Below are positions 13,373 through 37,505 of a stretch of 64,000 nt of DNA, piece by piece; position 1 is the stretch's first letter, and each line of letters starts with the position of its first letter. The notes under the pieces are model-generated. The model had not been told where the DNA came from and searched no databases. It worked only from the letters and a program-made list of their open reading frames with translations. A program made the translations under genes and the position numbers. Source of the DNA: Candidatus Cloacimonadales bacterium (GTDB lineage Bacteria > Cloacimonadota > Cloacimonadia > Cloacimonadales > DAONDQ01); NCBI GenBank assembly GCA_963662275.1, contig OY759316.1:1760001-1824000 (forward strand), given 5' to 3'.

Positions 13373-14614
13373 ATGGAAATAATCAAGACGAATTGTCTCT
13401 CACCAATTAACGCTAATGAAGTACTCTATTTACCTGACCACTACATCATGATAGAAGATGGTAAAATATTCAATATAACCCCCAACCTGCCTTCTGGTAT
13501 GAAAGACTATTTTATAGACGCTACAGATTGTATCTGCATACCCGGTCTCATCGACATACATGTTCATCTTTCCCAGTGGTTTGCGCGAGGTAAGTACAAA
13601 CCTGATCTCATTGAATGGCTGGAGACCTATATATTTGAGGAAGAAGCTAAATTCAAGGATCCGGTCTATGCACGTTATGTAGCAGAGAAGTTCTTCCAGG
13701 CTCTCATCAGTAATGGAACAACCTGTGCCGTCATCTATGTGGCTGCCTTCAAGGAAGCTACTGACCAGGCTTTCCAGGTTGCTGAAGAATACGGCTACAG
13801 ATGTATCATGGGAAAGACGATGATGGACAGTAATTGTCCTGATTTTATACGTGAAGATACAGATCAATCTATGCAGGAAAGCATTTCTCTCTTTGAAAAG
13901 TGGAATGAAAAGACACCTTTGCTCAACTATGTTTTTACTCCTCGTTTTGCTCCTGTTTGTTCCCTCAAACTTCTCAGAAAGATAGGTGCTTTTGCCAGGA
14001 TGAACAACGCCTATATCCAATCCCATCTCTCAGAGAATATCAATGAACTGGATTGGGTACATAAGCTGTATCCTGAATACAAGAATTATACAGATGTTTA
14101 TGCTCATACTGATACTCTTGGACCAAAGACGATTATGGCTCATTGTATACATTTGAATGAAGATGAGATAGAAATACTCAAAAAGACTGATACCCGCATT
14201 GCACATTGTCCCGATTCTAATTTCTATTTGAAAAGCGGTATGATGCATTATCATAAGTTAAAGAAGAATCATATAAAAATCGGCTTGGCATCAGATGTTG
14301 GAGCAGGTACAAGCTTAAATATGTTCTATCATATGAAGATGGCTAATTTCAGACAGAGTCATGATATCATATTACCCCAGGAAGCATTCTATTTGGCAAC
14401 TCTCGGTGCTGCCAAAACAATCAGTAAAGAAACTACGATTGGTTCTTTGGAAGTCGGGAAGGCAGCAGACCTGACCTTCGTTGAATTTGCTGATACTAAA
14501 GACAGGACAGCAGAAGAGATCGTTTCAGAACTGGTATTTACCGGTATGGAAAAAAGGATTCGTTACGTATATATCAATGGATCAAAGAAGTATCCATTTG
14601 CCTCTAAATCTTAA
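13373..14614 (+). CDS. guaD: Guanine deaminase
   Basis: PGLIDIHVHLSQ, TPRFAPVCS, QSHLSEN, HCPDSN, SDVGAG; start chosen after GGAG because the upstream extension is REP-derived. Confidence 0.9.
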   Translation: MEIIKTNCLSPINANEVLYLPDHYIMIEDGKIFNITPNLPSGMKDYFIDATDCICIPGLIDIHVHLSQWFARGKYKPDLIEWLETYIFEEEAKFKDPVYARYVAEKFFQALISNGTTCAVIYVAAFKEATDQAFQVAEEYGYRCIMGKTMMDSNCPDFIREDTDQSMQESISLFEKWNEKTPLLNYVFTPRFAPVCSLKLLRKIGAFARMNNAYIQSHLSENINELDWVHKLYPEYKNYTDVYAHTDTLGPKTIMAHCIHLNEDEIEILKKTDTRIAHCPDSNFYLKSGMMHYHKLKKNHIKIGLASDVGAGTSLNMFYHMKMANFRQSHDIILPQEAFYLATLGAAKTISKETTIGSLEVGKAADLTFVEFADTKDRTAEEIVSELVFTGMEKRIRYVYINGSKKYPFASKS

Positions 14615-14629
14615 GAAGCGGGGAAATCT

Positions 14630-16162
14630 ATGCATCATATTAAAATACACTTTTACCTGAATGAACGGGAAATGGATTTGACCATTTCTCCTGATCTATC
14701 AGCACTTCAATTGATACGCGAACATGCAGGGCTTTCAGGTACAAAGGAAAGCTGTTCCGAAGGGGATTGTGGAGCCTGTACGATTGCTGTCGGGAAATGG
14801 GAATATGACAAATTCGTTTATCGTGCATTCAATTCCTGTATCATGCCCGCAGTGAAAATGCATGGTATGCATGTTGTGACTGTGGAAGGCTTGGGTACTC
14901 CAGTAAATATGCATCCAATCCAAAAAGCCATGCTGGATGCACACGGTACGCAATGCGGATATTGCACTCCAGGCTTTATTATGTCATTGTTCTGTGTTTT
15001 TTCACTGAATTCCGATCCTGATATGGAAGAAGTGAAAGCTTCTCTCGAAGGCAATTTATGCCGTTGTACCGGGTATGAAGCAATTTTCAAAGCGGTTGAA
15101 CAAATTCGTAACTGGAGAAACAGCAATTCAGAGCATCATTTTTATCCAACTCACTTTCTTCCCATACATGAAAAGCTACATACTTTTGAAAAGGTGATAG
15201 AGTTTGTTCAAGTCAATGGGAATAATATAGATACTGTTAAAGAATACGTAGTACCGAAAAGTATGAAAGATTTATTTGAAGTTCTTGCTAACATGAAAGA
15301 TAGTAAGAGTTATCGTATCATTGCCGGGGCTACCGATCTCCTGGTGGATGCTAATATCAAGGGACAATGGTATCCTGTATATATTGATATTTCCACAATT
15401 CCTGAACTGAAGATATTGAAGGATGATCCGAAGAATATATGGATATGCGCAGCAGTCACTCAATCAGAAGTGATCGAATCATCTCTGATCTGGGAAAAGA
15501 GTCCGATTCTTGCCAAAGCTGTATCAAAAATGGGTTCAAAGCAAACAAGGAATGCTGCAACCCTCGTTGGTAATATTGCCAATGCGTCACCCATTGCGGA
15601 TGGAGCGACTGCCCTGTTAGGTTTGGGGGCATATGTTGAACTCATGTCCGAAGGAAAGCAGCGTTCTATTCTTCTAGAGCAATTCTACAAAGGTTATAAA
15701 GCAACTGATCTGCAACCGGGTGAGATCATCGGCTGTGTTTTGGTTCCTCATCAGAAAGGATTTTGTTCTTTTGAGAAGACAGCAAAGCGTATTGCTGTTG
15801 ATATTTCAACAGTCAATTCACTACTCAATATCAGGATTGAGAATGATCTTGTTCAATATGCACGTATCGCCTTTGGTGGTATTGCTCCCTATCCGATTTT
15901 AGCAAATCAGACGATGGAATTCCTAGTAGGAAAGAAGATTACAGAATCAGTTATCAATGAAGCTGCTGAAATTGCTATGCAAGAATTCAAACCAATCGGT
16001 GATGTCCGCGGTAGTATGGAATATCGTCAGCTTTTAATACGAAATCACATCAGGAAACATCTGAATAAATATCTTGTAAAGCAAGACTCCGTTGTGGGAC
16101 AAGATTCCGATCTTGTTGAATCTGCAGTCCAAGATGCTCATACTCCCGGAGGTGAATTATGA
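14630..16162 (+). CDS. xdhA: Xanthine dehydrogenase small subunit (2x[2Fe-2S] + FAD)
   Basis: GTKESCSEGDCGACT, QCGYCTPG, NLCRCTGY, AGATDL, GNIANASPIADG. Confidence 0.9.
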   Translation: MHHIKIHFYLNEREMDLTISPDLSALQLIREHAGLSGTKESCSEGDCGACTIAVGKWEYDKFVYRAFNSCIMPAVKMHGMHVVTVEGLGTPVNMHPIQKAMLDAHGTQCGYCTPGFIMSLFCVFSLNSDPDMEEVKASLEGNLCRCTGYEAIFKAVEQIRNWRNSNSEHHFYPTHFLPIHEKLHTFEKVIEFVQVNGNNIDTVKEYVVPKSMKDLFEVLANMKDSKSYRIIAGATDLLVDANIKGQWYPVYIDISTIPELKILKDDPKNIWICAAVTQSEVIESSLIWEKSPILAKAVSKMGSKQTRNAATLVGNIANASPIADGATALLGLGAYVELMSEGKQRSILLEQFYKGYKATDLQPGEIIGCVLVPHQKGFCSFEKTAKRIAVDISTVNSLLNIRIENDLVQYARIAFGGIAPYPILANQTMEFLVGKKITESVINEAAEIAMQEFKPIGDVRGSMEYRQLLIRNHIRKHLNKYLVKQDSVVGQDSDLVESAVQDAHTPGGEL

Positions 16163-18483
16163 AACAAGCACAATTCATCAAACAAATAAAAGCAACCAAG
16201 CATATCAGCGGACATCTGCATGTGACTGGTACTTCCAAGTTCATCGGCGATGAGATCCGTCCCACAGGTATGCAGAGCATTAAGCTTGTTTTCAGTCCTT
16301 TTGCTCATGCTGAAATTGTATCTATAGACACCTCAGAAGCATTGGCTGTGGAAGGTGTGAAAGCTGTTCTAACATGGAAGGATATTCCTGGAGAGAACCA
16401 AGTAAGTCATCTTTTTCATGATGAGCCTCTCCTGCCTGAAACAGAAGTTATCTATGTCGGTCAGCCAGTTGTGATTGTCGTTGCAAAGAACGAAAAGATA
16501 GCTGAATATGCATCTAAATTAGTAAACATCGAATATAAAGAACTGATACCAGTTCTCACTGTGGAAGAAGCACTTGCCAACAATATGCTATATGTACCCG
16601 AAAGAAAGATCGAACGGGGAAACGTATCTCATTATTATGAATTTGCTCCACACAGATTGTCAGGGGTTGTACAGACAGGTACTCAGGAACAGTTTTACAT
16701 GGAATCCCAACGCTGTTGGGCTATTCCTTCCGAAGACGGGGAATTAACCCTGTATTCGGCAACCCAAAGTACATCTGAAGTGCAGGAAACAGCAGCCCAT
16801 GTGTTAGGTAAGCGAAGCAAGGACATCACGGTAGATGTCAAACGTCTTGGTGGTGCCTTTGGCGGAAAGGAAAGCGGTGCAACCCTTTGGGCTTGCCTGG
16901 CTGCTCTGGCTGCTGATCATACACAGATGCCGGTTGAATTGAAACTGACCAGGCTGGAAGATATGACTGCCACAGGGAAGCGCAATCCATTCAAAATGCA
17001 TTATAAAGTTGGTTTTGATGATGATGGCAGGATACTTTCTTATGATATTACACATGATGTGAATGGCGGAGCCTGTACAGATCTCACGGTTGCCATCATG
17101 GAAAGAGGGATGCTGCATTCAGATAATACTTATTATCTTCCCAATGTTCGTATCATTGGTCATGCCTGTCGAACCAATCTTCCACCCAACACCGCCTTTA
17201 GAGGATTTGGTGCACCCCAGGGCATCTTTGCCATTGAAACTGTCATGCATCGTATGGGCAGATATCTGAAGAAAGATCCGAACGAAATTAGAAAAGCCAA
17301 TTTCTATAAAGAAGGCGAAACTACTCCCTATCAACAAATCATTCATGAAGAATGCAGCCTGGAATTATTAAAAAAATTGGAAGAGACAGCCCAATATACA
17401 AAATTAAAAGAAGAAGTGAAAGCCTTCAATCAAACTCATAAAGATGTGAAACGCGGTATTGGGACGACACCCGTCAAATTCGGTATTTCCTTTACGACTG
17501 CTTTCTTAAACCAAGGCTCTGCACTGGTACTCGTTTATACTGACGGTACAATCTCCTTAAGCCATGGCGGTATTGAAATGGGACAGGAGATCAATACCAA
17601 GGTTGCACAAGTAGTTGCCCGCGTGCTGGGAGTCAGTATAGAGCACATTAAACAGGAAAGTTCAAATACAAAGCGTACGGCGAATGCCTCTCCAACGGCT
17701 GCATCCTCAGGTTCTGATATCAATGGTAATGCTGCCAGGATTGCTGCTGAAAAGATCAGAGCACGACTAGCCCAGGCAGCTTGTGATTATTTTACTGAAC
17801 ACAAGCTGGGTAATTTTCAACCGGAAGACATTATCTTCGCTTCCGACCAGGTATATTCAGATTCCAAACAGGAAGAATCTGTTTCCTTTAAAGATCTTGT
17901 CATGTACGCCTACCTTCACAGTATAGATCTCTGTGCTCATGGTTTTTACAGCACTCCCGGTATTTGGTATGATCGTGACAAAGGAGAAGGCAATCCCTTC
18001 TATTATTTTGTATATGGTGTAGCTCTTGTTGTGATGGAAGTGGATGTCTATACAGGTATGAATCGGTTGGTGGATGTCATTATTGTTCATGAAACAGGGG
18101 AGAGTCTGAATCCGGAAGTAGATAGAGGGCAGGTCATTGGTGCTTTTTACCAGGGATATGGCTGGTCAACGATGGAAGAAGAAGTATATGACTCCAAAGG
18201 TCGTTATCTTGCCTTGACACCATCCACCTATAAATTTCCATGTATTCGTGATTATCCGGACAGGTTAATCATCGAATTAATTGATAGAAAACGAGTTCAT
18301 TCCAGTGTTATGGGAAGCAAGGCAGTCGGCGAACCACCATTAGTATATGGTGAAGCTGCCTATTTTGCCATTCGTGATGCGATTGAATCCATGAGTGATT
18401 TTACTCGTGAAGCAGACCTTCAAATGCCTGCTACCCCTGAAGCCACGCTGATGGCAATTGAAAGAATAAAGGAGAAACAATGA
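16159..18483 (+). CDS. xdhB: Xanthine dehydrogenase molybdopterin subunit
   Basis: GGAFGGKE, AFRGFGAPQG, KFGISFT, SPTAASSGSD, KAVGEPP. Confidence 0.9.
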   Translation: MKQAQFIKQIKATKHISGHLHVTGTSKFIGDEIRPTGMQSIKLVFSPFAHAEIVSIDTSEALAVEGVKAVLTWKDIPGENQVSHLFHDEPLLPETEVIYVGQPVVIVVAKNEKIAEYASKLVNIEYKELIPVLTVEEALANNMLYVPERKIERGNVSHYYEFAPHRLSGVVQTGTQEQFYMESQRCWAIPSEDGELTLYSATQSTSEVQETAAHVLGKRSKDITVDVKRLGGAFGGKESGATLWACLAALAADHTQMPVELKLTRLEDMTATGKRNPFKMHYKVGFDDDGRILSYDITHDVNGGACTDLTVAIMERGMLHSDNTYYLPNVRIIGHACRTNLPPNTAFRGFGAPQGIFAIETVMHRMGRYLKKDPNEIRKANFYKEGETTPYQQIIHEECSLELLKKLEETAQYTKLKEEVKAFNQTHKDVKRGIGTTPVKFGISFTTAFLNQGSALVLVYTDGTISLSHGGIEMGQEINTKVAQVVARVLGVSIEHIKQESSNTKRTANASPTAASSGSDINGNAARIAAEKIRARLAQAACDYFTEHKLGNFQPEDIIFASDQVYSDSKQEESVSFKDLVMYAYLHSIDLCAHGFYSTPGIWYDRDKGEGNPFYYFVYGVALVVMEVDVYTGMNRLVDVIIVHETGESLNPEVDRGQVIGAFYQGYGWSTMEEEVYDSKGRYLALTPSTYKFPCIRDYPDRLIIELIDRKRVHSSVMGSKAVGEPPLVYGEAAYFAIRDAIESMSDFTREADLQMPATPEATLMAIERIKEKQ

Positions 18484-20969
18484 AACCAAAGCATGATAAA
18501 GTCTATTTATCCGATGCACAACTAAAAGCTGAGTTTAATAAATGTGAATTTTGTGAAGAAAAGCCCTGCCGTGATGCCTGTCCTGCCGACTGTTCACCCA
18601 CAGATTTCATTCGTGCTGCCAAGCTGATGAAACCAGTTGACTATCAGCGTGCTGCTGCCATAATCCTTGGCAGCAATCCTCTCGGTGGTATTTGTGGACA
18701 CACTTGCCCTGATTATCACTGTATGAAAGCTTGTGTACACAAAAATTTCAATGAAGCAGTCAAAATACCGGAAGTCCAGGCAACCATCATTCACAATGCA
18801 CGTAAATTCAAAGTTGAACCGCTATTCCTAAAAGCCAAATGGAATAGGAAGAATATAGCCATCGTCGGAGCAGGTCCTGCTGGAATCGGTGCTGCTGCTG
18901 TACTGGGACAGCTTGGTTATGGTGTGACATTATTCGAAAAGTCTTCTCATGCTGGCGGTATGTGCCATTACATCCCTGATACAAGATTACCCAAGTCCGT
19001 GTTGAAAGCAGATCTGCAATTTTTAAAGAAACTCGGTAAGATAGAATATCAATTCGGAAAGGAAATCGCTGATCCTTCATTGTTATTGAAACAGGATTTT
19101 GTAGCTGTGATAGTTTCAACAGGTTTGGATAAGCCAATGAAACTGAATATCCCCGGTTCTGATAAAACACTCGATTGGTACCAATATCTTTCCCAATCTC
19201 AGACCCAACCAAGCCGTCGTGTTGCCATCATCGGTGGTGGTGCAATTGCCTTGGATTGTGCCTTGAAAGCTCTTGAGAATTCTGCAGAACAGGTTGATCT
19301 GATTTGTCTTGAAGTACCTTCTGAAATGCCTTTAACTTCCAAGGAAAGAGCACATCTCATGAATGAGAATATTGGAGTTATCGGTAGAACCAGTATCACT
19401 GAAATTACGCATGCTGATCATTCTTTTAAGCTAAAAGGAAATAAAGTTCAATTAAAGAAAGGACTCGATTTCTCACCCATGAATGTAGAGCCCGTATTCG
19501 GCTCTGAACTTCATTTACCCGGCTACGATATTGTCATTTTCGCTATTGGCAGTCGCAGCTCTTCACCCAAGATAGCCCATAAGGGTGTTTTCTATACAGG
19601 TGATATGATGCATGGAGCCACGACTGTGGTTGAAGCAGTCGCAACCGGAAAGAATACTGCCACTGAAGTAGATGGCTGGATTCAAAATAGGAAACGTGCA
19701 GCCCATTCACAAAAAGCCAAGAGCCATGTCATTCTTCATGGAAGAAACATGATTCCAATTGGCTTGGAAAGTGACTTCTTTGGACGTAAGATCATTTCTC
19801 CCTTTATTCTTTCAGCCGCTCCACCATCAGATGGTTATGAACAAATGAAGAAAGCCTATGATGCCGGTTGGGCTGGCGGTGTGATGAAAACTTGCTTTGA
19901 TGATGTCGATATCCATATTCCAGGTGAATACATGTTCCAGATCAATGATACGACCTATGGCAATTGTGATAACGTTTCCGGTCATCCTCTCAACAGGATA
20001 TGCAAGGAAATCGGGCAATTGATCAAGGAATATCCTGATCGCTTGACTATGGCTTCTACTGGTGGACCTGTCACAGGGAAAGACAAGAGTGACAAGAAAG
20101 TATGGCAGTCAAATACCCTGAAACTGGAAAAAGCCGGTGCGATGGGTATCGAATACAGTCTCTCCTGCCCCCAGGGCGGGGACGGAACAAAAGGCGATAT
20201 CGTTTCCCAGGATGCTGAATTGACAGCAAAGATCATTGACTGGGTCATGGAAGTCAGTAATCCTGAAATTCCAAAACTCTTCAAACTGACAGCTGCTGTC
20301 ACAGCAATTTATCCTATTATGAAAGCCATACAGGACGTCTTTAAGAAATACCCCGGTAAAAAAGCTGGTGTGACATTGGCTAATACATTCCCAAGCATGG
20401 CATTCCGTCCGGGAAGCAAGGAAAACTGGGATGAGGGAATTGTCGTAGGTTTATCCGGCGAAGGTGTGATTCCAATTAGTAACCTGACTCTCGCGAATGT
20501 CGCTCGTTTCAAGATGAATATTTCCGGGAATGGCGGCCCCATGGATTATAAAACGGCTGCAGATTTCCTGGCTCTCGGTGTCAAGACAGTTCAATTCTGC
20601 ACGATCGCTATGAAACATGGTTATGGTATCATCGATGACTTGCATTCAGGTTTAAGTTATCTTCTTCAATCCAAAGGTTTGAAATCAGTTGAAGAACTCA
20701 TTGGTATTGCGTTACCAAATCCAATTACCGGCTTCATGGAATTAACAAGTAAGAAGAAGATTTCAGACGTTGTCGGTTCCTTATGTCAGCATTGTGGTAA
20801 TTGCACACGCTGTCCTTACATGGCAATTGAACTCGATAAAGATAAAATTCCTTCAACAGATCCATCCAAATGCATCGGCTGTTCCATTTGTGCTCAAAAG
20901 TGTTTCTCAAGCGCTTTGTTTATGAGAGACAGAACTGCCGAAGAATTGAAACAATTAAAAGAAGACTAG
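18480..20969 (+). CDS. Single-chain dihydropyrimidine dehydrogenase-like flavoprotein (PreT-PreA fusion)
   Basis: N-terminal GltD-type Cys clusters; GAGPAG and GGGAIA dinucleotide folds; FMN barrel with SCP and ANT; two C-terminal ferredoxin motifs. Confidence 0.8.
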   Translation: MKPKHDKVYLSDAQLKAEFNKCEFCEEKPCRDACPADCSPTDFIRAAKLMKPVDYQRAAAIILGSNPLGGICGHTCPDYHCMKACVHKNFNEAVKIPEVQATIIHNARKFKVEPLFLKAKWNRKNIAIVGAGPAGIGAAAVLGQLGYGVTLFEKSSHAGGMCHYIPDTRLPKSVLKADLQFLKKLGKIEYQFGKEIADPSLLLKQDFVAVIVSTGLDKPMKLNIPGSDKTLDWYQYLSQSQTQPSRRVAIIGGGAIALDCALKALENSAEQVDLICLEVPSEMPLTSKERAHLMNENIGVIGRTSITEITHADHSFKLKGNKVQLKKGLDFSPMNVEPVFGSELHLPGYDIVIFAIGSRSSSPKIAHKGVFYTGDMMHGATTVVEAVATGKNTATEVDGWIQNRKRAAHSQKAKSHVILHGRNMIPIGLESDFFGRKIISPFILSAAPPSDGYEQMKKAYDAGWAGGVMKTCFDDVDIHIPGEYMFQINDTTYGNCDNVSGHPLNRICKEIGQLIKEYPDRLTMASTGGPVTGKDKSDKKVWQSNTLKLEKAGAMGIEYSLSCPQGGDGTKGDIVSQDAELTAKIIDWVMEVSNPEIPKLFKLTAAVTAIYPIMKAIQDVFKKYPGKKAGVTLANTFPSMAFRPGSKENWDEGIVVGLSGEGVIPISNLTLANVARFKMNISGNGGPMDYKTAADFLALGVKTVQFCTIAMKHGYGIIDDLHSGLSYLLQSKGLKSVEELIGIALPNPITGFMELTSKKKISDVVGSLCQHCGNCTRCPYMAIELDKDKIPSTDPSKCIGCSICAQKCFSSALFMRDRTAEELKQLKED

Positions 20970-20977
20970 GAGGATAA

Positions 20978-22309
20978 ATGGAAAAAGGTATTCTCATAAA
21001 GAATGGGACGCTGATTACTTTAGGTATCCATAACAAGGTACTGCATGGTTATGCATTGCTCATAGTTGATGATAAGATAAAAAAGATTGCTCCTCAGGCT
21101 GAATTTCCTGATAAATACGAAAAAGAAATCGATGCTTGCGGTATGGTCGTTATGCCAGGCTTTATTAATGCCCATATGCATTTCTACAGCACTTTGGTAA
21201 GAGGACTAGGCAAAGCTCATCCTTCCCGTGATTTCGTAGAAGTTCTGGAAAATCTCTGGTGGAGGCTTGATCGGAAACTGGAACTGGAAGATACATATTA
21301 CAGTGCCTTGATCATGGCAATCCAGGCAATCAAGAATGGAACGACTACTCTGATTGATCATCATGCCAGTCCAGGTCACATTCCCTGTTCTTTAAATGAA
21401 ATTGAACGTGCTGTTAAACTGACGGGTTTAAGGGCTTCCTTATGCTATGAATTATCTGACCGTGATGGTGAAGATATTACAAAGCAGGGATTATCTGAAA
21501 ATGTCAGATTCATACAAAAGTGCCAGCATGAACCAAATGATCAATTCAAAGCTTTGTTTGGTTTGCATGCTTCTTTCACAATCAGTGATGAAACATTGGA
21601 TAGAGCGGTTGCCCTGGCAAAACATTATGACACTGGATTCCATGTTCATACTGCAGAAGCTGAATCAGATCAAATACATACAATGACTCACCATGGCAAA
21701 CGTGTGGTGGAAAGATTTTATGATCATGGCGTTCTTGGACCACAAACCATTGCAGCCCATTGTGTTCATGTGAACGAACATGAAATGGACTTACTGCATG
21801 AAACCAGCACAATAGTGGTACATAATCCACAATCCAATATGAATAATGCTGTCGGTATTGCGGATATCATTACCTTACAGGAAAAAGGTATTCTTGTGGG
21901 ATTGGGTACAGATGCTATGACTGTCAATATGCTGGAAGAAGTGAGAGTTGCCATGTGGGCTCAGCACCTGAAGCATAACAATCCGACATGCGGTTTCATG
22001 GAAGTAGTGAATACTCTCTTTACAAATAACTCGCTGATCGCAGAAAGATACTGGCAAAAACCAATCGGTGTGCTGAACGAAGGTGCATTGGCTGATATCG
22101 TATGTATTCCTTATTGTGCTCCTACACCATTGGATGACTCAACTGCTTATGGGCACCTGGTATTTGGTATTTCACAGAGTCCTGTTGATACAACCATCGC
22201 CGGTGGTAAAGTACTTATGCAGAATCGCAAGTTGAAAATAAATATTGATGAAACAGAAGTAAATGGTCGTTCTCGGGAAGTTGCTCAAAGACTTTGGAAT
22301 AGGTTCTAG
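20978..22309 (+). CDS. ssnA: SsnA-like amidohydrolase
   Basis: PGFINAHMHFYS, LENLWWRLD, IDHHASP, GLHASFT, HNPQSNMNNAVG. Confidence 0.9.
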   Translation: MEKGILIKNGTLITLGIHNKVLHGYALLIVDDKIKKIAPQAEFPDKYEKEIDACGMVVMPGFINAHMHFYSTLVRGLGKAHPSRDFVEVLENLWWRLDRKLELEDTYYSALIMAIQAIKNGTTTLIDHHASPGHIPCSLNEIERAVKLTGLRASLCYELSDRDGEDITKQGLSENVRFIQKCQHEPNDQFKALFGLHASFTISDETLDRAVALAKHYDTGFHVHTAEAESDQIHTMTHHGKRVVERFYDHGVLGPQTIAAHCVHVNEHEMDLLHETSTIVVHNPQSNMNNAVGIADIITLQEKGILVGLGTDAMTVNMLEEVRVAMWAQHLKHNNPTCGFMEVVNTLFTNNSLIAERYWQKPIGVLNEGALADIVCIPYCAPTPLDDSTAYGHLVFGISQSPVDTTIAGGKVLMQNRKLKINIDETEVNGRSREVAQRLWNRF

Positions 22310-22468
22310 TATTTAAAGTAATACATTATATAGTAATAGTAAATTTATTCCATAATTAGCATTCTCTTGTTTCCGAGTTTACAGAATACTCACATAAGTG
22401 ACTTTAAATATCAGGTAAAAAACAAGAATGTATGAAAAGAAAATGAACAAGCCTTGAAGTAAAAAAGT

Positions 22469-22511
22469 CTAGATGATCCCTAGATGATCCCTAGATGATT
22501 CCTAGATGATG
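22469..22511. repeat. 11-bp tandem repeat CTAGATGATCC x4
   Basis: Direct reading of the intergenic sequence. Confidence 0.85.
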
Positions 22512-29140: not shown

Positions 29141-29168
29141 AAGTTAAAAATTAAAAATTGCAGAGAAG

Positions 29169-29519: not shown

Positions 29520-30716
29520 ATGAATCCATTATTAGAAAAGAACTGGGAAGAGCTGCAACGCCTTATGCCGCAACTCTATAACAAAGACTTCTTACTTACC
29601 TGGGAAAACAATGATGACAATATCAAATCAGTTCTATTAATTGCTGAAATGATGAAAGAATTACATAGAACCGGTAAATCACTCAAATCGTTCAAGTCCG
29701 GCTTGGGCATTGCGATCTTCAGGGACAATTCAACCCGTACCCGCTTCAGCTTCGCTTCCGCTGTGAATGCACTCGGTCTTGGCTTATCCGAATTGGATGA
29801 AGTCAAATCCCAGGTGGCTCATGGTGAAACGGTTCGTGAGACTGCCAACATGATCTCTTTCCTCACAGAAACCATCGGTATCCGTGATGATATGTACATC
29901 GGGGAAGGTCATCGCTATATGAAAGAAGTCAGTGATGCCATTGAAGACGGTTACAAGGAAGGAACACTTCCCCAGCGCACCAGCATCATCAACCTGCAAT
30001 GCGACATCGACCATCCCACGCAGACGATGGCTGATTTATTGAAACTCAAGCATTACTTCGGTTCCCTTGAAAACCTGAAAGGCAAGAAGATAGCCATGTC
30101 ATGGGCATATTCACCCAGCTACGGCAAACCTCTTTCCGTACCGCAGGGAATCATTGGTCTTATGACCCGTATGGGCATGGACGTTTCCCTCGCTTATCCT
30201 GAAGGCTATGGTTTATTACCGGAAGTCATTGATATAGCGAAGAAACAATCAGCAGCGATGGGTGGAAAATTCGAGATTACAAACTCCATGGAAGAAGCAT
30301 TCGATGGGGCAGATGTGGTCTATCCAAAATCCTGGGCTCCTTTCCATGTGATGGTCAACCGTACTGAACTCCTCCAGAAAGGCGATAAGGAAGGTTTGAA
30401 AGGACTGGAACAGGATTGTTTGAAGAACAATGCAAAGTTCACGAATTGGGAATGCGATGCCGAGAAGATGAAGAGAACCAAGGACGGAAAGGCTCTCTAT
30501 ATGCACTGTCTGCCGGCTGATATAACGGATGTGAGCTGCAAGCAGGGTGAAGTTTCCAAGGAAGTCTTTGAGAAATATCGCCTGGAAACCTATCATGAAG
30601 CAAGCTTCAAACCGTTTGTCATTGCTTCCATGATTTTCCTCACCCGTATGCCCGACCCGATGAAGGCAATGCAAAAGCTTCTGACAGATTCAAAAAACAG
30701 AAATATGAATATTTAA
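29520..30716 (+). CDS. ygeW: Knotted carbamoyltransferase YgeW
   Basis: FRDNSTRTRFSF, HGETVRETA, NLQCDIDHPTQ, WAYSPSYGKPLSVPQG, YMHCLPAD. Confidence 0.95.
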   Translation: MNPLLEKNWEELQRLMPQLYNKDFLLTWENNDDNIKSVLLIAEMMKELHRTGKSLKSFKSGLGIAIFRDNSTRTRFSFASAVNALGLGLSELDEVKSQVAHGETVRETANMISFLTETIGIRDDMYIGEGHRYMKEVSDAIEDGYKEGTLPQRTSIINLQCDIDHPTQTMADLLKLKHYFGSLENLKGKKIAMSWAYSPSYGKPLSVPQGIIGLMTRMGMDVSLAYPEGYGLLPEVIDIAKKQSAAMGGKFEITNSMEEAFDGADVVYPKSWAPFHVMVNRTELLQKGDKEGLKGLEQDCLKNNAKFTNWECDAEKMKRTKDGKALYMHCLPADITDVSCKQGEVSKEVFEKYRLETYHEASFKPFVIASMIFLTRMPDPMKAMQKLLTDSKNRNMNI

Positions 30717-30730: not shown

Positions 30731-32188
30731 ATGTCAAAAATCATCAAGACTATCAACAAAGAAGTCAGAGCGAAGACAGCCAAGCGCTGTAAAGACCTCA
30801 AAGTCATTATCCCTACATTTGAACAGCTTCGTCATCCCGAAACAATCCCTGAATCCATTAAAAGCCAGTTACCCGGTGTGGGCTTCTGGGATGTGAATCC
30901 TCTCAACCTCTTCCGCATTACCTGGAAGAATGATGAAAAGACCGGTCTGTACGGTGACGTGAATGTCGTCGAGATTCCCTCTTCCATCTCCGGTGTGAAG
31001 GCACGTATCATCGGACTGGTAGGCAAGAACTTCCCCACAGGTGCACATAAAGTCGGTGCAGCGTTTGGATGCCTGGTACCACGTCTCATCTCCGGTGAAT
31101 TCGATCCCGAAGTGAACAAAGCCGTATGGCCTTCCACAGGCAATTACTGTCGTGGCGGTGCATTCGACTGTGCTCTGCTCGGTGTTTCCTCCATCGCTAT
31201 CCTTCCTGAAGAGATGTCACAGGAAAGATTCACTTGGCTGAGAGAGATCGGTGCAGAAGTTATAGCCACTCCGGGCAGTGAATCCAATGTGAAGGAAATC
31301 TATGACAAATGCTGGGAACTGAAGCAGGATTCAAAGAATATGATCTTTAACCAATTCGAAGAATTCGGCAATCCAATATGGCATTATAATGTAACCGGAC
31401 CAGCCATAGAAGAAGCTTTCCAGGCAATCAATAAAACGAATATGCGTTTAAGCGCTTACATTTCAGCAACGGGTTCAGCAGGAACCATCGCTGCCGGTGA
31501 TTACCTCAAAAATTCACATCCGCATATGAATACTGTGGCTGTGGAAGCACTGCAGTGCCCAACCATCCTTCAGAATGGCTTCGGTGCACATCGCATTGAA
31601 GGTATAGGCGACAAGCATATCCCGTGGGTGCATAATGTGAGAAATACAGATGCCGTTGCTGCTATCGATGATGAAGACTGCATGCGTATCATGCAGCTTT
31701 TCAATGAGAAAGCCGGACGTGACTTCCTCGAAGCAAAGGGCATCGACACTTCCAAGCTTCCATTATTGGGAATCTCCAGTATCTGTAACATGCTTGCTGC
31801 AATCAAAACTGCCAAGTATTATGAAATGGACGAGAATGACGTTATTTTCACTATTTTCACCGATTCCATGGAAATGTACGGCTCACGTATCAATGAGCAG
31901 GACGAAGCTAAGGGTGAATATACTAAGTGCAATGCAGCCATCGACATGGCTTCCTGCATTGCCCATCAAGGCATTGATAACTTCGCTGAATTGAACTACC
32001 GTGACCGCAAACGGGTGCATAACCTGAAGTATTTCACTTGGGTGGAACAGCAGGGCAAGACCTTTGAAGAGATCAATGAGCAGTGGGATCCTGAATATTG
32101 GCGTGCTCTTCTCGAAGATGAAGTGGCGTACTTCGACACTCTGATCAATGAATTCAATCAGATTGTCTCAGAAATTAAGAATAGATGA
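30731..32188 (+). CDS. PLP-dependent fold-type II enzyme (cysteine synthase-like), function unknown
   Basis: PTGAHKVGAA (PLP Lys), PSTGNY, NQF, ATGSAGT, HRIEGIG. Confidence 0.8.
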   Translation: MSKIIKTINKEVRAKTAKRCKDLKVIIPTFEQLRHPETIPESIKSQLPGVGFWDVNPLNLFRITWKNDEKTGLYGDVNVVEIPSSISGVKARIIGLVGKNFPTGAHKVGAAFGCLVPRLISGEFDPEVNKAVWPSTGNYCRGGAFDCALLGVSSIAILPEEMSQERFTWLREIGAEVIATPGSESNVKEIYDKCWELKQDSKNMIFNQFEEFGNPIWHYNVTGPAIEEAFQAINKTNMRLSAYISATGSAGTIAAGDYLKNSHPHMNTVAVEALQCPTILQNGFGAHRIEGIGDKHIPWVHNVRNTDAVAAIDDEDCMRIMQLFNEKAGRDFLEAKGIDTSKLPLLGISSICNMLAAIKTAKYYEMDENDVIFTIFTDSMEMYGSRINEQDEAKGEYTKCNAAIDMASCIAHQGIDNFAELNYRDRKRVHNLKYFTWVEQQGKTFEEINEQWDPEYWRALLEDEVAYFDTLINEFNQIVSEIKNR

Positions 32189-32192: not shown

Positions 32193-32816
32193 ACCGGTAG
32201 TGGTATCCTTCAGGTTACCGGTAAATAAGCGTAAGCTAAAGACAGCGCCTACCGACCGGTAGTGGTATCCTTCAGGTTACCGATAAACAAGCGTAAGCTA
32301 AAGACAGCGCCCACCGACCGGTAGTGGTATCCTTCAGGTTACCGGTAAATAAGCGTAAGCTGAAGACAGCGCCTACCGACCGGTAGTGTTATCCTTCAGG
32401 TTACCGATAAAACAAGCGCAAGCTGAAGACAGCGCCCACCGACCGGTAGTGGTATCCTTCAGGTTACCGATAAACAAGCGCAAGCTGAAGACAGCGCCCA
32501 CCGACCGGTAGTGGTATCCTTCAGGTTACCGATAAAACAAGCGTAAGCTAAAGACAGCGCCTACCGACCGGTAGTGTTATCCTTCAGGTTACCGATAAAA
32601 CAAGCGCAAGCTGAAGACAGCGCCCACCGACCGGTAGTGGTATCCTTCAGGTTACCGGTAAATAAGCGTAAGCTGAAGACAGCGCCTACCGACCGGTAGT
32701 GTTATCCTTCAGGTTACCGATAAAACAAGCGCAAGCTGAAGACAGCGCCCACCGACCGGTAGTGGTATCCTTCAGGTTACCGATAAACAAGCGTAAGCTA
32801 AAGACAGCGCCTACCG
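32193..32816. repeat. Tandem array of REP-doublet unit, 10 copies of 62-63 bp
   Basis: Unit starts 32193, 32255, 32317, 32379, 32442, 32504, 32567, 32630, 32692, 32755. Confidence 0.95.
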
Positions 32817-32837
32817 AAACAACAATAAAGGAACAAA

Positions 32838-33413
32838 ATGAAAAAGCTAAACGTTCTTATCCTCGCTGCAGGCGAAGGCACACGCATTGGAACACCCAAA
32901 TGGCGTCTGAAATGGGAGGGTGAACGTTTCATAGATATTCTGTTCAATCACCTGGAAGAAGCGAACCTGGCAGATATCTACACCCTCATGAGTGAAGAGG
33001 AAGCTCCTCAATTCATCAGAAACTATCCCAACAGGAAAGTGCTCATCAATCCCGATCCATCATTGGGCATGATCTCCTCTATCAAGATCGGGGTGGAACA
33101 AACTCCCCCTGCCGATTCCTACTTGATCGTTTTGGTAGATCATCCTTTCGTGAAGACTGCCACGTATGAAACCCTTGTCAATTCCTTCAAAAAATACGCA
33201 GGCTACCTGATCCAACCTGTGGTGAATACCAAGCCCGGACATCCCGTCATCGTTCCTCACCAGGTATTTGACAAAGGCTTCCCGGAAGACCTTGCAAATA
33301 GCAACCTGCATATGATGATCGTAAAGTCGAATATTCCTGTGATGAAGGTGGCGGTGAAGGACGAGGAGATCTTTAGGAACGTTAATGTTCCGGCAGATCT
33401 GAGAAGAGACTAG
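32838..33413 (+). CDS. MocA-like molybdenum cofactor nucleotidyltransferase
   Basis: LILAAGEGTRIG.PK, GMISSIKIG, LVDHP, GHPV; Mo-hydroxylase context. Confidence 0.8.
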   Translation: MKKLNVLILAAGEGTRIGTPKWRLKWEGERFIDILFNHLEEANLADIYTLMSEEEAPQFIRNYPNRKVLINPDPSLGMISSIKIGVEQTPPADSYLIVLVDHPFVKTATYETLVNSFKKYAGYLIQPVVNTKPGHPVIVPHQVFDKGFPEDLANSNLHMMIVKSNIPVMKVAVKDEEIFRNVNVPADLRRD

Positions 33414-33431: not shown

Positions 33432-34832
33432 CTAGTACAGCCGATAATTCAGATTGATATAAGAACTCAAATTCTCTAGTTGATAAACTGATGAATCTTT
33501 ATTATGAACATGATTTAAAGTACCTGACAATTTACAAGTGAGATCCATCCTGGAGCTAATCTGGTAAGTTGCTCCTAAACTCGTATTAAGATCAAACCTA
33601 GATGCTTCCGAAACAAATCCGTTATTGTACATAGACTTTTTAACTCTAGTCTGAATTTCTTCCATGTTATTAATTTGATATCGAGGTGAAACATTTAATG
33701 CAATTAAGCTACGGCAATCAGGATAACATGAGATTGTACAAGTTGCCTGTAAATCGGTAAACGGCTTCTTATGATCTTGAATAGTATCCACTTCATCATT
33801 ATCAGCAAAGAAATCAAACCAGCCTTGCTTGACACTCATTTCACGGCTAAGCTGGAAAATGTTGTTTAGAGGAAGTTCATCCCTGGCTACTAATTCCATT
33901 CCGCCTTCTGCATGATAGAAGTTATATATATTAGTATCATCCGGTTGATCTACATATTCATAGCGTCGATTATGTTTGTCATTGTAAAATGATAGGAAAG
34001 GTTTAACTTCAAAACGAGTCCCGGTTAAACGAGTTTCATTATTACCTCTTAGCCATAAATCCATCAGGATTGATGTGGCTTTCGTTTCAGAGCTACTGTT
34101 TACGTAATCTTTTGATTTTAAGTCATCTAAGAGCAGTGTTGATTTCCTGACAAAGATTGCTCGAGGATCTATCATGTGAATTGATCTGAGTTGATACAGC
34201 ACTAAAGCCAGTTCATCTATATCCTGGTCAGTGAATTGCCTGCTTAAACAGCCATTTTTTCCTAATTCATTGAAAAAGTACCAGGATAAATATGATTCCT
34301 GGCATTCATATAGCCTGCCATAACCGAATGTGCCTGCTATTTGATTTACAAAGTCCCAATCTCTTTGATGAGAATTATGAGAATTAATGGAATAATAACT
34401 TTCTTGATCGCTATCGTTTTTATTCATCTCACAAGTATTAGTAAATTCAAATCCTGCAAATAAATCATTTTTGTATGATTTGTATTCAATCTTATTATTA
34501 GAGGACAGTTGCTCATTCCATCCCCGATTACTATGATATGAAGAAGAGTGTGGGTAGTCGTTCCTCGAAGTATTATACGATGCTGCCTCGTAAGAGTTTA
34601 TTAATAAATCAAATTTCGGTTTGCTGATATTCAATGACCCATCGATAGAAATCCTGTTATTAAAACTAAAATTATCACGAGAACTCAAAAAATTCTGATA
34701 AGATGTGTTATTATTTAAACGAGGAGTAAGATAATAATCTACCAAGTCTGTGTGTTTAAAATTACCAATATTGTAACCGCATAAAGCTGTATTTAATGCA
34801 CACATGATGATAAGAAACGGGATGTTCTTCAT
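33432..34832 (-). CDS. Hypothetical secreted, probable outer-membrane beta-barrel protein
   Basis: Signal-like N-terminus after AAGGAG; Asn/Tyr-rich alternating strands; C-terminal YINLNYRLY beta-signal-like end. Confidence 0.6.
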   Translation of the reverse strand: MKNIPFLIIMCALNTALCGYNIGNFKHTDLVDYYLTPRLNNNTSYQNFLSSRDNFSFNNRISIDGSLNISKPKFDLLINSYEAASYNTSRNDYPHSSSYHSNRGWNEQLSSNNKIEYKSYKNDLFAGFEFTNTCEMNKNDSDQESYYSINSHNSHQRDWDFVNQIAGTFGYGRLYECQESYLSWYFFNELGKNGCLSRQFTDQDIDELALVLYQLRSIHMIDPRAIFVRKSTLLLDDLKSKDYVNSSSETKATSILMDLWLRGNNETRLTGTRFEVKPFLSFYNDKHNRRYEYVDQPDDTNIYNFYHAEGGMELVARDELPLNNIFQLSREMSVKQGWFDFFADNDEVDTIQDHKKPFTDLQATCTISCYPDCRSLIALNVSPRYQINNMEEIQTRVKKSMYNNGFVSEASRFDLNTSLGATYQISSRMDLTCKLSGTLNHVHNKDSSVYQLENLSSYINLNYRLY

Positions 34833-35283
34833 GAATTTCTCCTTAGCATTCAATACTTGGAACTTGTACTATAGATTAACAGATGTACATTAGCAAATTA
34901 ATACATAAGTGTCATCGTTATTCTTATAGTTATTTAAATTGATAATATTTTTTTTCAGACTGTCATTAGTGTCAAGAAAATACAATATGGAATTTGATCC
35001 AGGACAGCAAAGTTTTATCAGTAGCATTACGTGTGTAAATCAGAGAGAATATAATATCAGCTAGTTACTAGAAAAAAATAGACAAATTATACAGGTGTGT
35101 AAAACTACAGTCAGTTTGTCTGATGATGTATAATCTATATGTCGAAGTTTGAAAGAAAGACTTCGCTATGTAGCACCCGTTTCAGAAGAATGGAAAATCC
35201 TGTGTGTTTATCTTCTGTTCTGCAGTCCATCGGACATTACTCTGATAGCCCAGGAATATATTCTTGGTTATGTTGAAAGATAT

Positions 35284-36718
35284 CCGGTAGTGGTATCCTT
35301 CAGGTTACCTTACAAGCGCAAGCTAAAGACAGCGTCCACCGGTAGTGGTATCCTTCAGGTTACCTTACAAGCGCAAGCTAAAGACAGCGTCCACCGGTAG
35401 TGGTATCCTTCAGGTTACCTTACAAGCGCAAGCTAAAGACAGCGCCTACCGGTAGTGGTATCCTTCAGGTTACCTTACAAGCGCAATCTAAAGACAGCGC
35501 CCACCGGTAGTGGTATCCTTCAGGTTACCTTACAAGCGCAAGCTAAAGACAGCGTCCACCGGTAGTGGTATCCTTCAGGTTACCGTACAAGCGCAATCTA
35601 AAGACAGCGCCCACCGGTAGTGGTATCCTTCAGGTTACCTTACAAGCGCAAGCTAAAGACAGCGTCCACCGGTAGTGGTATCCTTCAGGTTACCGTACAA
35701 GCGCAAGCTAAAGACAGCGCCCACCGGTAGTGATATCCTTCAGGTTACCTTACAAGCGCAAGCTAAAGACAGCGCCCACCGGTAGTGGTATCCTTCAGGT
35801 TACCGTACAAGCGCAAGCTAAAGACAGCGTCCACCGGTAGTGGTATCCTTCAGGTTACCTTACAAGCGCAATCTAAAGACAGCGCCCACCGGTAGTGGTA
35901 TCCTTCAGGTTACCTTACAAGCGCAAGCTAAAGACAGCGCCTACCGGTAGTGGTATCCTTCAGGTTACCTTACAAGCGCAAGCTAAAGACAGCGCCTACC
36001 GGTAGTGGTATCCTTCAGGTTACCTTACAAGCGCAAGCTAAAGACAGCGCTTACCGGTAGTGGTATCCTTTAGGTTACCTTACAAGCGCAAGCTAAAGAC
36101 AGCGCCCACCGGTAGTGGTATCCTTCAGGTTACCTTACAAGCGCAAGCTAAAGACAGCGCCCACCGGTAGTGGTATCCTTCAGGTTACCTTACAAGCGCA
36201 AGCTAAAGACAGCGCCTACCGGTAGTGGTATCCTTCAGGTTACCTTACAAGCGCAAGCTAAAGACAGCGCCCACCGGTAGTGGTATCCTTCAGGTTACCT
36301 TACAAGCGCAAGCTAAAGACAGCGCCTACCGGTAGTGGTATCCTTCAGGTTACCTTACAAGCGCAAGCTAAAGACAGCGCTTACCGGTAGTGGTATCCTT
36401 TAGGTTACCGTACAAGCGCAAGCTAAAGACAGCGCCCACCGGTAGTGGTATCCTTCAGGTTACCTTACAAGCGCAAGCTAAAGACAGCGCCTACCGGTAG
36501 TGGTATCCTTCAGGTTACCGTACAAGCGCAAGCTAAAGACAGCGCTTACCGGTAGTGGTATCCTTTAGGTTACCGTACAAGCGCAAGCTAAAGACAGCGC
36601 CCACCGGTAGTGGTATCCTTCAGGTTACCTTACAAGCGCAAGCTAAAGACAGCGCCCACCGGTAGTGGTATCCTTTAGGTTACCGTTAAACATGCGCAAG
36701 CTAAAGACAGCGCCTACC
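35284..36718. repeat. Tandem array of REP-doublet unit, 26 copies (55-bp period; last copy 60 bp)
   Basis: Consensus CCGGTAGTGGTATCCTTCAGGTTACCTTACAAGCGCAAGCTAAAGACAGCGCCCA; first start 35284, last start 36659. Confidence 0.95.
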
Positions 36719-36731
36719 AACGGAGTTAATC

Positions 36732-37505
36732 ATGAACATCGCCTTCATCAACGAAATGAAAAAAGTCATAGAAGCCAACACCCCTGCCTGGCTGCTCACC
36801 GTCACAGCTTCTGAAGGCTCCACACCCGGCAAACCGGGTATTAAGATGATCTTAAGAGCTGATGGCACATTCATCGGCACCATCGGTGGCGGTAATATCG
36901 AAAAGATAGCCATGCAGCGTGTTTTGGAAGAAAAGCCGACTTTCCCCCAGAAATGGAATTACGACCTCTCTGGAGAGGAGCTTCTGCTTCCTACAGGCAT
37001 GATTTGTGGCGGTTCACAGGAGATATTTGTGGAACCTCTCTTTGCAGCACAATCCCTCTATATCCTCGGCGGTGGACATTGCGGTATCGCCCTTTCCGAA
37101 CTGGCTGCGAAATGCGGATTCCATGTCACGGTCATCGACGATAGGGAAGAGTGGGCTGCCAAAGAAAAGCATCCCTACGCTGCCAGTGTCGTCTGTATCG
37201 ATTACGAGAGGGCAGGAGATATGGTGCAGGATGGAAGCTATGTCGTCATCATGACTCATGGGCATAAGCACGACGGCATGGTCTTACGCCAATTCCTAAG
37301 GCGTGAAATGAAGTATGTCGGCATGATCGGCAGCAAAACAAAGGTTGCAGCCACCTATGCGAAGATCATGGAAGAATGCTACACCGAAGCTGAACTTGCC
37401 AAAGTCTATGCACCAATAGGCTATCCAATAGGATCTCAAACTCCAGAGGAAATAGCAGTATCTGTTATGGCACAGTTGATAGCAGTCAAATACGGAAAAT
37501 TATAA
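36732..37505 (+). CDS. xdhC: XdhC/CoxI-family Mo-hydroxylase maturation factor
   Basis: GSTPGKPG.KM, GTIGGG, GMICGG, GGGHCG, DDR, MTHGH..D, GMIGS, TPEEIAVS. Confidence 0.9.
   Translation: MNIAFINEMKKVIEANTPAWLLTVTASEGSTPGKPGIKMILRADGTFIGTIGGGNIEKIAMQRVLEEKPTFPQKWNYDLSGEELLLPTGMICGGSQEIFVEPLFAAQSLYILGGGHCGIALSELAAKCGFHVTVIDDREEWAAKEKHPYAASVVCIDYERAGDMVQDGSYVVIMTHGHKHDGMVLRQFLRREMKYVGMIGSKTKVAATYAKIMEECYTEAELAKVYAPIGYPIGSQTPEEIAVSVMAQLIAVKYGKL

Follow-up and report, generated by a model that had tools for sequence, protein, structure and literature searches.

The reductive breakdown of urate by anaerobic bacteria was solved in 2025 in Escherichia coli and clostridia (PMC12507026; bioRxiv 10.1101/2025.04.24.650524; commentary PMC12990295). 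Urate is converted to 2,8-dioxopurine ("yanthine") by XdhD-YgfM or XdhAC and dearomatised by YgfK, SsnA and HyuA open the rings to give 2,3-diureidopropionate, YgeW (yielding carbamoyl phosphate and ATP) and YgeY strip the ureido groups, and YgeX converts diaminopropionate to pyruvate (PMC12507026; bioRxiv 10.1101/2025.04.24.650524). The order of ureido cleavage and the stereochemistry are raised as questions in the commentary (PMC12990295). Here we describe a gene cluster of a Candidatus Cloacimonadales bacterium that likely encodes a variant of this pathway. It occupies positions 13304-37505 of the 64,000-nucleotide stretch that was analysed (hereafter the window; G000:C1:1760001-1824000), which lies in a closed genome of 4.38 Mb that is 99.97% complete.

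According to PMC12507026, the E. coli cluster consists of xdhD-ygfM, ygfK, ssnA, hyuA, ygeW, yqeA, ygeY, and ygeX, while in C. difficile the PydA homolog UacX performs the yanthine step together with SsnA. C. difficile retains YgeX and depends on SelD and YqeB to use purines (bioRxiv 10.1101/2025.04.24.650524). In the same source, all cluster-carrying strains of a gut library have SelD and YqeBC, and the DOPDH of a selD mutant is inactive. Cloacimonadota are not among the phyla named for SsnA in the available text of PMC12507026, and the words "threonine" and "Cloacimon" have no occurrences in the searched text of either primary report. The consulted part of PMC11129491 records only the presence of xanthine dehydrogenase (XDH) genes. 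Our literature search, which did not extend to the bioRxiv supplements with their phyla of metagenome-assembled genomes (MAGs), found no paper tying Cloacimonadota, or the ThrC-like and CysK-like enzyme families described below, to the pathway.

Gene content and canonical counterparts

The cluster comprises 14 co-oriented open reading frames (ORFs) on the + strand, all intact and full-length. Nine of the 13 gene junctions are an overlap or a gap of ≤15 nt, the larger gaps being an AT-rich spacer (22310-22596) and three tandem-repeat arrays (Table 1). The genes listed in a first-pass annotation, which had been made from the letters of this DNA alone, were all recovered among these ORFs with the family scores and domains of Table 1, where scores are written as bits / curated NCBIfam cut-off and domains were called with Pfam. 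The annotation had not remarked on the three repeat arrays, a minus-strand ORF between mocA and xdhC, or a group II intron just 5' of the cluster.

We consider it likely that the cluster encodes a purine-to-pyruvate fermentation that is a variant of the reductive urate pathway. This reading builds on observed gene content, membership of the marker families, a genome-wide lack of canonical counterparts, and conserved synteny. GuaD would convert guanine to xanthine and a canonical XdhAB would convert xanthine to urate, from which a second molybdenum/2Fe-2S enzyme without flavin adenine dinucleotide (FAD), encoded at 26424-29140, would form 2,8-dioxopurine. A fused five-domain reductase of the dihydropyrimidine dehydrogenase (DPD) type would dearomatise this compound in the place of YgfK, after which SsnA and a hydantoinase-like amidohydrolase would open the rings to give 2,3-diureidopropionate. 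YgeW would take one ureido group, giving carbamoyl phosphate from which an unlinked carbamate kinase would make ATP, and YgeY would take the other. The ThrC-like enzyme, the CysK-like enzyme, or both would then release pyruvate and ammonia by a beta-elimination dependent on pyridoxal 5'-phosphate (PLP), in the place of YgeX. XdhC and a MocA-like protein would mature the molybdenum enzymes without SelD, YqeB, or YqeC. The substrates of the substitute enzymes, the split of steps between the two molybdenum enzymes, and the division of labor within the PLP pair are in each case predicted from sequence.

Whole-genome searches, in every one of which the E. coli control scored over the cut-off, were consistent with this view. 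No YgfK over the cut-off was found in the genome (best match 300.6 / 835.3). The searches for YgeX/DpaL gave no match to TIGR03528, and the best genome-wide match to TIGR01747, of 19.7 bits, was the CysK-like gene of the cluster. The genome has no XdhD orthologue (best TIGR03313 score in the genome search 196.2 / 1101.9), its best SelD match is 29.3 / 125, and neither YqeB nor YqeC was matched. Carbamate kinase (ArcC) is represented by one unlinked gene (G000:C1:1225397-1226332; 375.5 / 358.25), about 535 kb from the cluster and in an uninformative gene context. The first-pass annotation had correctly noted that YgfK, YgeX, and carbamate kinase are missing from the window; for the first two, as for SelD, YqeB, and YqeC, the absence extends to the whole genome, but for carbamate kinase it does not. 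The route that it proposed, from guanine via xanthine or urate to ring opening by alternative enzymes, is supported, although it had missed the 2,8-dioxopurine intermediate reported in 2025. The replacement of YgfK that it had suspected is likewise supported, but replacement by a DPD homolog has a published precedent in UacX (PMC12507026).

As in E. coli, SsnA, YgeY, and YgeW (orthologous by the curated cut-offs) are combined with a carbamate kinase in the genome, and the predicted logic is the same, with molybdenum-dependent dehydroxylation, flavin-dependent dearomatisation, two ring openings, two ureido cleavages, and a PLP-dependent step. Unlike E. coli, the genome lacks YgfK, YgeX, XdhD, YqeB, and YqeC, and has instead a DPD-type fusion reductase, separate molybdenum and 2Fe-2S subunits without an FAD subunit, an amidohydrolase under the HyuA-type cut-off, two other PLP enzymes, a carbamate kinase that is unlinked, and guaD and xdhAB joined into the operon. 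Fermentation of purines via 2,8-dioxopurine is the most probable function, with five departures from the known pathway: the DPD fusion for YgfK, the molybdenum/2Fe-2S enzyme for XdhD, a divergent amidohydrolase for HyuA, the PLP pair for YgeX, and the lack of selenium-cofactor genes. The likeness to the UacX/UacY cluster of C. difficile, as described in PMC12507026, lies in a DPD-type FMN enzyme in the position of YgfK and a molybdenum enzyme without an FAD subunit. However, UacX is described there without an FAD/NAD(P)H module, whereas here the whole five-domain DPD is present in one 829-aa protein, so that NAD(P)H is the likely electron donor, and YgeW, which UacY replaces in C. difficile, is kept. 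With the DOPDH (XdhAC)/DOPOR (YgfK) pathway of C. sporogenes, the proposed route would share its intermediates and their order, as well as ATP formation via YgeW and carbamate kinase.

Distribution in the order and in other phyla

The substitute genes were followed through 41 genomes of the same order, the window's own genome (G000) included. SsnA scored over its cut-off in 21 genomes and the DPD fusion was found in 21, with both present in 20. The two departures are G004, where SsnA is adjoined by YgfK and there is no fusion, and G030, where the fusion is present and a contig end truncates SsnA (441.4 bits); apart from G030, the fusion occurs in none of the genomes without SsnA. YgfK exceeded its cut-off in six of the 41 genomes, always with SsnA, or an SsnA-like gene scoring 300-360 bits, as its neighbor. 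The ThrC-like gene lies ≤5 kb from SsnA in 18 of the 21 carriers and on another contig in the remaining three. DpaL was over its cut-off in none of the 41 genomes, three of which have a near-cut-off copy distant from SsnA. A tblastn comparison around SsnA in ten relatives recovered the order ssnA-ygeY-thrC-like-hyuA-like in all nine with sufficient contig; the fusion stood beside ssnA in four and next to xdhAB at a different site in others. In G011, G019, and G031 (loci L124, L125, and L126), the YgfK-type clusters also hold ygeY-ygeW-cysK-like-thrC-like, and the PLP pair is therefore independent of the type of reductase. In these three loci YgfK is paired with an SsnA-like gene of 300-360 bits, under the SsnA cut-off, and there are two further XDH-family enzymes, one with an FAD subunit.

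For other phyla, contigs from one genome per species were scanned with an alignment of 20 ThrC-like proteins, which yielded at least 462 confirmed relatives. The best 80 of the 462 loci were analysed; they come from Verrucomicrobiota, Ignavibacteriota, Bacteroidota, KSB1, Holophagaceae and other Acidobacteriota, Planctomycetota, a gammaproteobacterium, and one Cloacimonadota contig. Forty-two have flanks of ≥8 kb on each side (full-flank loci), and among these the most frequent companions are ygeW (38), ssnA (36), cysK-like (33), ygeY (31), the DPD fusion (30), the 2Fe-2S subunit of the second molybdenum enzyme, FeS2 (30), its molybdenum subunit, Mo2 (28), and hyuA-like (22). Far fewer have mocA (11), xdhB (6), xdhA (5), xdhC (3), or guaD (1). 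Half of the full-flank loci (21/42) carry all seven of the DPD fusion, ssnA, ygeY, Mo2, FeS2, ygeW, and cysK-like, and six have no ssnA within reach.

Gene order is conserved as well. In the 80 loci, ygeY is followed by thrC-like in 50 of 50 cases, the fusion by ssnA in 45 of 45, and ygeW by cysK-like within 1 kb in 46 of 59, some of the misses being contig ends. No DpaL-like gene was found in any of the 80, ArcC is inside 19, and in 11, mostly of Holophagaceae, a YgfK homolog takes the place of the fusion. The Ignavibacteriota locus L044 has the exact order of the window from the fusion to xdhC in 14.4 kb and is free of repeats. This gene order is common to MAGs of Ignavibacteriota, Verrucomicrobiota, KSB1, and Bacteroidota, and the variant is widespread in the environment.

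These neighborhoods bear out the description of the locus in the first-pass annotation as a variant urate cluster with non-orthologous replacements, since ygfK and ygeX are missing genome-wide and the substitutes travel with ssnA, ygeW, and ygeY in many other genomes. Its suggestion that the lineage may be undescribed in this respect holds insofar as we found no paper on Cloacimonadota, but the shared gene order means that the variant is not specific to the lineage.

The substitute enzymes and competing explanations

The fusion consists of a GltD/PreT-like N-terminal half (Fer4_20, Pyr_redox_2) and a PreA/DHODH-like half (PreA, residues 429-815), and scores only 156.5 / 835.3 with the YgfK model. 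It is collinear with residues 74-997 of pig DPD over the five-domain architecture, at a modest 173 bits, and retains the catalytic Cys (SLSCPQG vs. NLSCPHG in the pig enzyme), the position of which is fixed by a C671A entry in the alignment output. The equivalents of Cys671, Asn609, Ser670, Asn736, and Thr737 are kept and Asn668 is replaced by Ser. The nearest homolog, from a Cloacimonadota MAG, is 83% identical, and more than 120 homologs of 822-855 aa with ~59-66% identity occur in MAGs of many phyla. We infer that the fusion may act as the 2,8-dioxopurine reductase in the place of YgfK. In G010, two pieces of a reductase are found on separate contigs, a PreA-like half (C7:73793-75055, 76% identity) and a PreT-like half (C282:2373-3548, 50%), which may be a split form of the fusion.

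The strongest competing explanation is that the fusion, the hydantoinase-like enzyme, and the M20 hydrolase belong to an ordinary pathway for pyrimidine (uracil/thymine) reduction that lies beside purine genes, in which case 2,8-dioxopurine would be reduced by another enzyme, if by any. In its favor, the fusion is collinear with pig DPD and keeps the catalytic Cys and most residues of the pyrimidine site, and the best model for the amidohydrolase is that of dihydropyrimidinase / D-hydantoinase. We nevertheless consider this explanation unlikely, based on the company that these genes keep. Of the 21 same-order genomes with SsnA, 20 have the fusion, which, G030 excepted, occurs in none without it and lies immediately 5' of ssnA in every one of the scanned loci that hold it (45/45). 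Moreover, the M20 gene is over a YgeY-specific cut-off and the genome holds no other candidate reductase. Further support comes from UacX, a PydA homolog that performs the yanthine step with SsnA according to PMC12507026.

The nearest relatives of Mo2 are 4-hydroxybenzoyl-CoA reductase, nicotinate dehydrogenase, and bovine XDH. Compared to the last of these (numbering via chain offset), Mo2 retains counterparts of Glu1261, Arg880, and Phe914 but has Asp in the place of Glu802 and Leu in that of Phe1009. No FAD subunit accompanies Mo2 and FeS2. Mo2 occurs in 28 of the 42 full-flank loci vs. six for XdhB, and because it is conserved in the clusters and XdhAB is an add-on here, we assign the formation of 2,8-dioxopurine from urate to Mo2. 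Accordingly placed in the position of XdhD/DOPDH, Mo2/FeS2 would be a urate / 2,8-dioxopurine dehydroxylase, which is the weakest of our assignments.

Genes of the selenium-cofactor machinery are also missing from other genomes. YqeB and YqeC were each found in none of the 41 same-order genomes, and YqeB in none of five cluster-carrying genomes of other phyla. SelD was not found in ten of the 41, nor in one of the five, and eight of the 21 SsnA carriers lack it (G000, G001, G003, G015, G022, G028, G035, and G040, each ≥98% complete), which differs from the published work on C. sporogenes. The lack of SelD, YqeB, and YqeC, together with the presence of XdhC and a MocA-like protein in the cluster, points to ordinary maturation of the molybdenum cofactor without a labile-selenium cofactor. 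The cluster would then be independent of selenium, a suggestion based on gene absence. In several relatives (e.g., G024:C50:20977-21897 and G007:C21:37521-38444) SelD lies within an open frame of ~740-750 aa, which suggests a fusion protein. Other relatives have a single in-frame TGA within the SelD match, which is what a SelD with selenocysteine should show.

The divergence of several enzymes from their characterised counterparts (the second molybdenum enzyme, the amidohydrolase, and both PLP enzymes) could also mean that the cluster degrades another nitrogen heterocycle, such as a pterin or a methylated or oxidised purine, by chemistry like that of SsnA, YgeW, and YgeY, and a cluster without a urate permease would fit this. 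We regard it as very unlikely given that guanine deaminase and a canonical XdhB, both over their cut-offs, start the operon, and that SsnA, YgeW, and YgeY are far over their equivalog cut-offs.

The ThrC-like protein has a PALP domain and its nearest solved relatives are short bacterial threonine synthases (168 bits to 2D1F). Its predicted model (mean predicted local distance difference test score, pLDDT, 86.6) has ThrC structures as top matches (2ZSJ, E 2.4e-26, TMt 0.83), and a CapA2 structure appears at rank 22 of the same structure search. Like the threonine synthases 2D1F, 2ZSJ, and 1UIM, it keeps the fold and the PLP lysine motif; in its family the PLP lysine (SLKDR) and an N-terminal CxxC...CxxC are invariant. 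Unlike them, it has changes in two motifs. The N-S-V-N-P-x-R of 2D1F and 2ZSJ is T-(A/G)-(Y/F)-H-P-L-T in 20 family members and T-(A/G)-Y-N-P-L-T in three members from YgfK-type clusters, and the STGNT of the solved enzymes is STGNA in all 23 aligned sequences. The replaced residues are those that we take to form the substrate-phosphate site, although literature confirmation of this was not found. It also differs from threonine synthase in its purine-catabolic gene context and in the presence of a separate housekeeping ThrC, which scores better (248.9 bits) and is encoded at 2714540-2715565 of the genome. Public annotation names the relatives of the ThrC-like enzyme "threonine synthase". Cysteate synthase, also homologous to ThrC, sets a precedent, since its substrate has three carbons and a leaving group in the beta position. 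The ThrC-like enzyme is a candidate for part of the terminal deamination in the place of YgeX.

The CysK-like protein keeps the fold-type II core and PLP lysine of O-acetylserine sulfhydrylase and cystathionine beta-synthase. The lysine, K107, in the motif PTGAHKVGAAF, is invariant in 27 sequences (mean column identity 76%), and ~70 N-terminal and ~100 C-terminal extra residues are kept across the family. The protein has only 95 bits to the best solved CysK, and fails both the CysK equivalog score and the ~300-aa length of that family. Its predicted model (pLDDT 85.7) matches the O-acetylserine sulfhydrylase and cystathionine beta-synthase cores (TMt ~0.8, at 0.81; TMq 0.53), and its atlas neighbors are unnamed PALP clusters of Chloroflexota, Spirochaetota, and Bacillota. 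It is a conserved partner of ygeW.

Both PLP enzymes might simply be biosynthetic threonine and cysteine synthases, with the pathway ending at 2,3-diaminopropionate or in an unrecognised lyase. The ThrC-like enzyme does reach the TIGR00260 cut-off, if barely, its relatives are annotated accordingly, and the predicted models of both have the corresponding folds. This is highly improbable in view of the better-scoring ThrC elsewhere in the genome, the family-wide replacement of N-S-x-N-P-x-R, the shortfall of the CysK-like protein (118.8 / 350.95) and its ~170 extra residues, and the synteny of both genes with ygeY and ygeW across phyla and reductase types. That the cluster is decaying and unused in its own genome is scarcely credible, for although three tandem-repeat arrays and a minus-strand ORF split its 3' part and its surroundings include a group II intron, an IS4-family transposase, and a second transposase (IS256-family by best model), 14 of 14 genes are intact with 59-92% identity to their counterparts in the same-genus genome G001, and the repeats are intergenic only.

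Several points weigh against the purine-to-pyruvate pathway itself. A true pyrimidine reductase would be no more DPD-like than the fusion, whose sequence cannot separate uracil from 2,8-dioxopurine as the substrate. By profile scores, Mo2 is orthologous neither to XdhD nor to the selenium-dependent XDH family. Thirteen of the 21 same-order SsnA carriers and four of the five genomes of other phyla do have SelD, and these may therefore use selenium by other routes. The hydantoinase-like gene is under the D-hydantoinase cut-off, and 20 of the 42 full-flank loci have no homolog of it. A simple exchange for YgeX would not call for two PLP enzymes, so that at least one should have some further role. 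Family scans of the window proteins revealed no purine/urate permease or regulator in the cluster. Lastly, the 80 loci were picked via the ThrC-like gene, which biases adjacency counts involving that gene upwards, and related genomes are non-independent samples.

That thrC-like accompanies ygeY and cysK-like accompanies ygeW, taken together with the stereochemical point in PMC12990295, suggests that the two PLP enzymes may act on different intermediates or different isomers. For example, one would eliminate urea from albizziin and the other ammonia from diaminopropionate. A pathway that combines selenium-free molybdenum maturation with an ending by two new PLP families, specialised for different intermediates or for D and L isomers and so providing an unpublished branch or stereochemical step, is a tentative proposal that we hold to be possible but rather doubtful.

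The two families now labelled as threonine and cysteine synthases probably serve purine catabolism in this pathway. Their assignment would correct many annotations and could bear on the questions of cleavage order and stereochemistry in PMC12990295. The pathway would reach across MAGs of Cloacimonadota, Ignavibacteriota, Verrucomicrobiota, KSB1, and Bacteroidota, in which purine fermentation would feed the anoxic turnover of nucleic acids. The urate pathway is being pursued for urate-lowering probiotics. If the selenium-free version is true, it would be easier to transfer to production hosts and would revise the view of the pathway as a selenium trait.

Cluster layout, repeats, and surroundings

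Table 1. Genes and repeat arrays of the cluster, with positions in the window. Scores are bits / NCBIfam cut-off.
Feature	Position	Strand	Scores, domains, and remarks
Guanine deaminase (guaD)	13304-14614	+	TIGR02967 377.4 / 375.4; Pfam Amidohydro_1
XdhA-type 2Fe-2S and FAD small subunit of canonical xanthine dehydrogenase	14630-16162	+	Pfam Fer2_2, FAD_binding_5, CO_deh_flav_C; TIGR02963 415.7 / 467 (under cut-off)
XdhB molybdopterin subunit of xanthine dehydrogenase	16159-18483	+	TIGR02965 871.6 / 849.5
829-aa fused DPD-type flavo-iron-sulfur reductase	18480-20969	+	Fer4_20, Pyr_redox_2, PreA
SsnA, ring-opening amidohydrolase (predicted), pathway marker	20978-22309	+	NF005540 543.7 / 444; TIGR03314 (IPR017700) 508.9 / 455.5
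YgeY, M20 ureido-group hydrolase (predicted)	22597-23841	+	NF009555 558.9 / 321
ThrC-like PALP (PLP) enzyme	23835-25055	+	TIGR00260 176.6 / 167.1; alternative ATG start at 23847
Hydantoinase-like cyclic amidohydrolase (HyuA position)	25066-26427	+	TIGR02033 259.2 / 393.25 (below cut-off)
Mo2, second XDH-family molybdenum subunit	26424-28670	+	TIGR03313 234.1 / 1101.9; TIGR03311 434.5 / 830.45
FeS2, 2Fe-2S subunit of second molybdenum enzyme	28667-29140	+	Pfam Fer2_2; no equivalog cut-off reached
Tandem repeat, 62-nt unit x 4.2, spacer ahead of ygeW	29168-29427	.	
YgeW, knotted carbamoyltransferase	29520-30716	+	NF005538 654.6 / 453
485-aa CysK-like PALP (PLP) enzyme with N- and C-terminal extensions	30731-32188	+	TIGR01139 118.8 / 350.95
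Tandem repeat, 62/63-nt unit x 10	32193-32817	.	
MocA-like molybdenum-cofactor cytidylyltransferase	32838-33413	+	Pfam NTP_transf_3; TIGR03310 98.5 / 186.45 (below cut-off)
473-aa ORF between mocA and xdhC	33432-34853	-	No Pfam or NCBIfam match
Tandem repeat, 55-nt unit x 26, immediately 5' of xdhC	35284-36718	.	
XdhC-family molybdenum-cofactor insertion chaperone	36732-37505	+	Pfam XdhC_C, XdhC_CoxI; NF045664 248.6 / 350 and TIGR02964 128.1 / 161.6 (both under cut-off)

The three repeat arrays of the cluster and a fourth at 47550-47663 have units of 55-63 nt in 4, 10, 26, and 2 copies, respectively. The units share a 27-nt core, ACCGGTAGTGGTATCCTTCAGGTTACC, the ends of which can pair. Allowing up to two mismatches, the genome has 89 copies of the core, spread over about ten sites, while the reversed control has no occurrence. 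A CRISPR reading of these ORF-free stretches was rejected because the parts between the cores also repeat (96-97% identity) and the unit forms tandem arrays at about ten genomic sites. Between ssnA and ygeY, the 287-nt AT-rich spacer has an 11-nt unit (CTAGATGATCC and variants) repeated head to tail four times at 22469-22512, which may be a regulator binding site. No riboswitch was detected in the window, in which Rfam at the gathering threshold gave only four tRNAs and a group II intron, and a scan for promoters and terminators gave counts at chance level. A look for transcripts turned up no RNA data set covering 18480-26427. The compact Ignavibacteriota cluster has no counterpart of the minus-strand ORF between mocA and xdhC. 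The product of this ORF begins like a signal peptide, contains many N, S, and Y residues, and has an aromatic residue at its end; it may be an outer-membrane beta-barrel.

The G+C content of the cluster is 0.432 vs. 0.37-0.38 in its flanks, and several of its proteins are 62-66% identical to Ignavibacteriota/KSB1 homologs vs. 53-59% to most of those in the same order. A quick maximum-likelihood tree of 49 DPD fusions places the window and its congener with three same-order genomes (SH-aLRT 93, not starred; long branches). As this grouping is with the same order, transfer is not demonstrated, and despite the G+C content, the nearby tRNA genes and mobile elements, and the identities we do not claim it.

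Upstream of the cluster, four tRNA genes (10606-10983) are followed by the group II intron 5' of guaD (RF02001 at 11111-11278, a reverse transcriptase/maturase ORF at 11673-13040, and RF00029 at 13055-13137), which ends 166 nt before guaD. The ThyX ORF at 9146-10534 encodes 462 aa with two Thy1 matches, about twice the usual length. The region 3' of the cluster (37925-56374) contains a PRiA4_ORF3-like gene, the IS4-family transposase, a ChlI-like AAA ATPase and a VWA protein, and the second transposase, which is below the cut-off of its best model. It also encodes two GLUG / choice-of-anchor-J proteins (975 and 1573 aa) and an SBBP-repeat protein with a type IX secretion system (T9SS) sorting tail.

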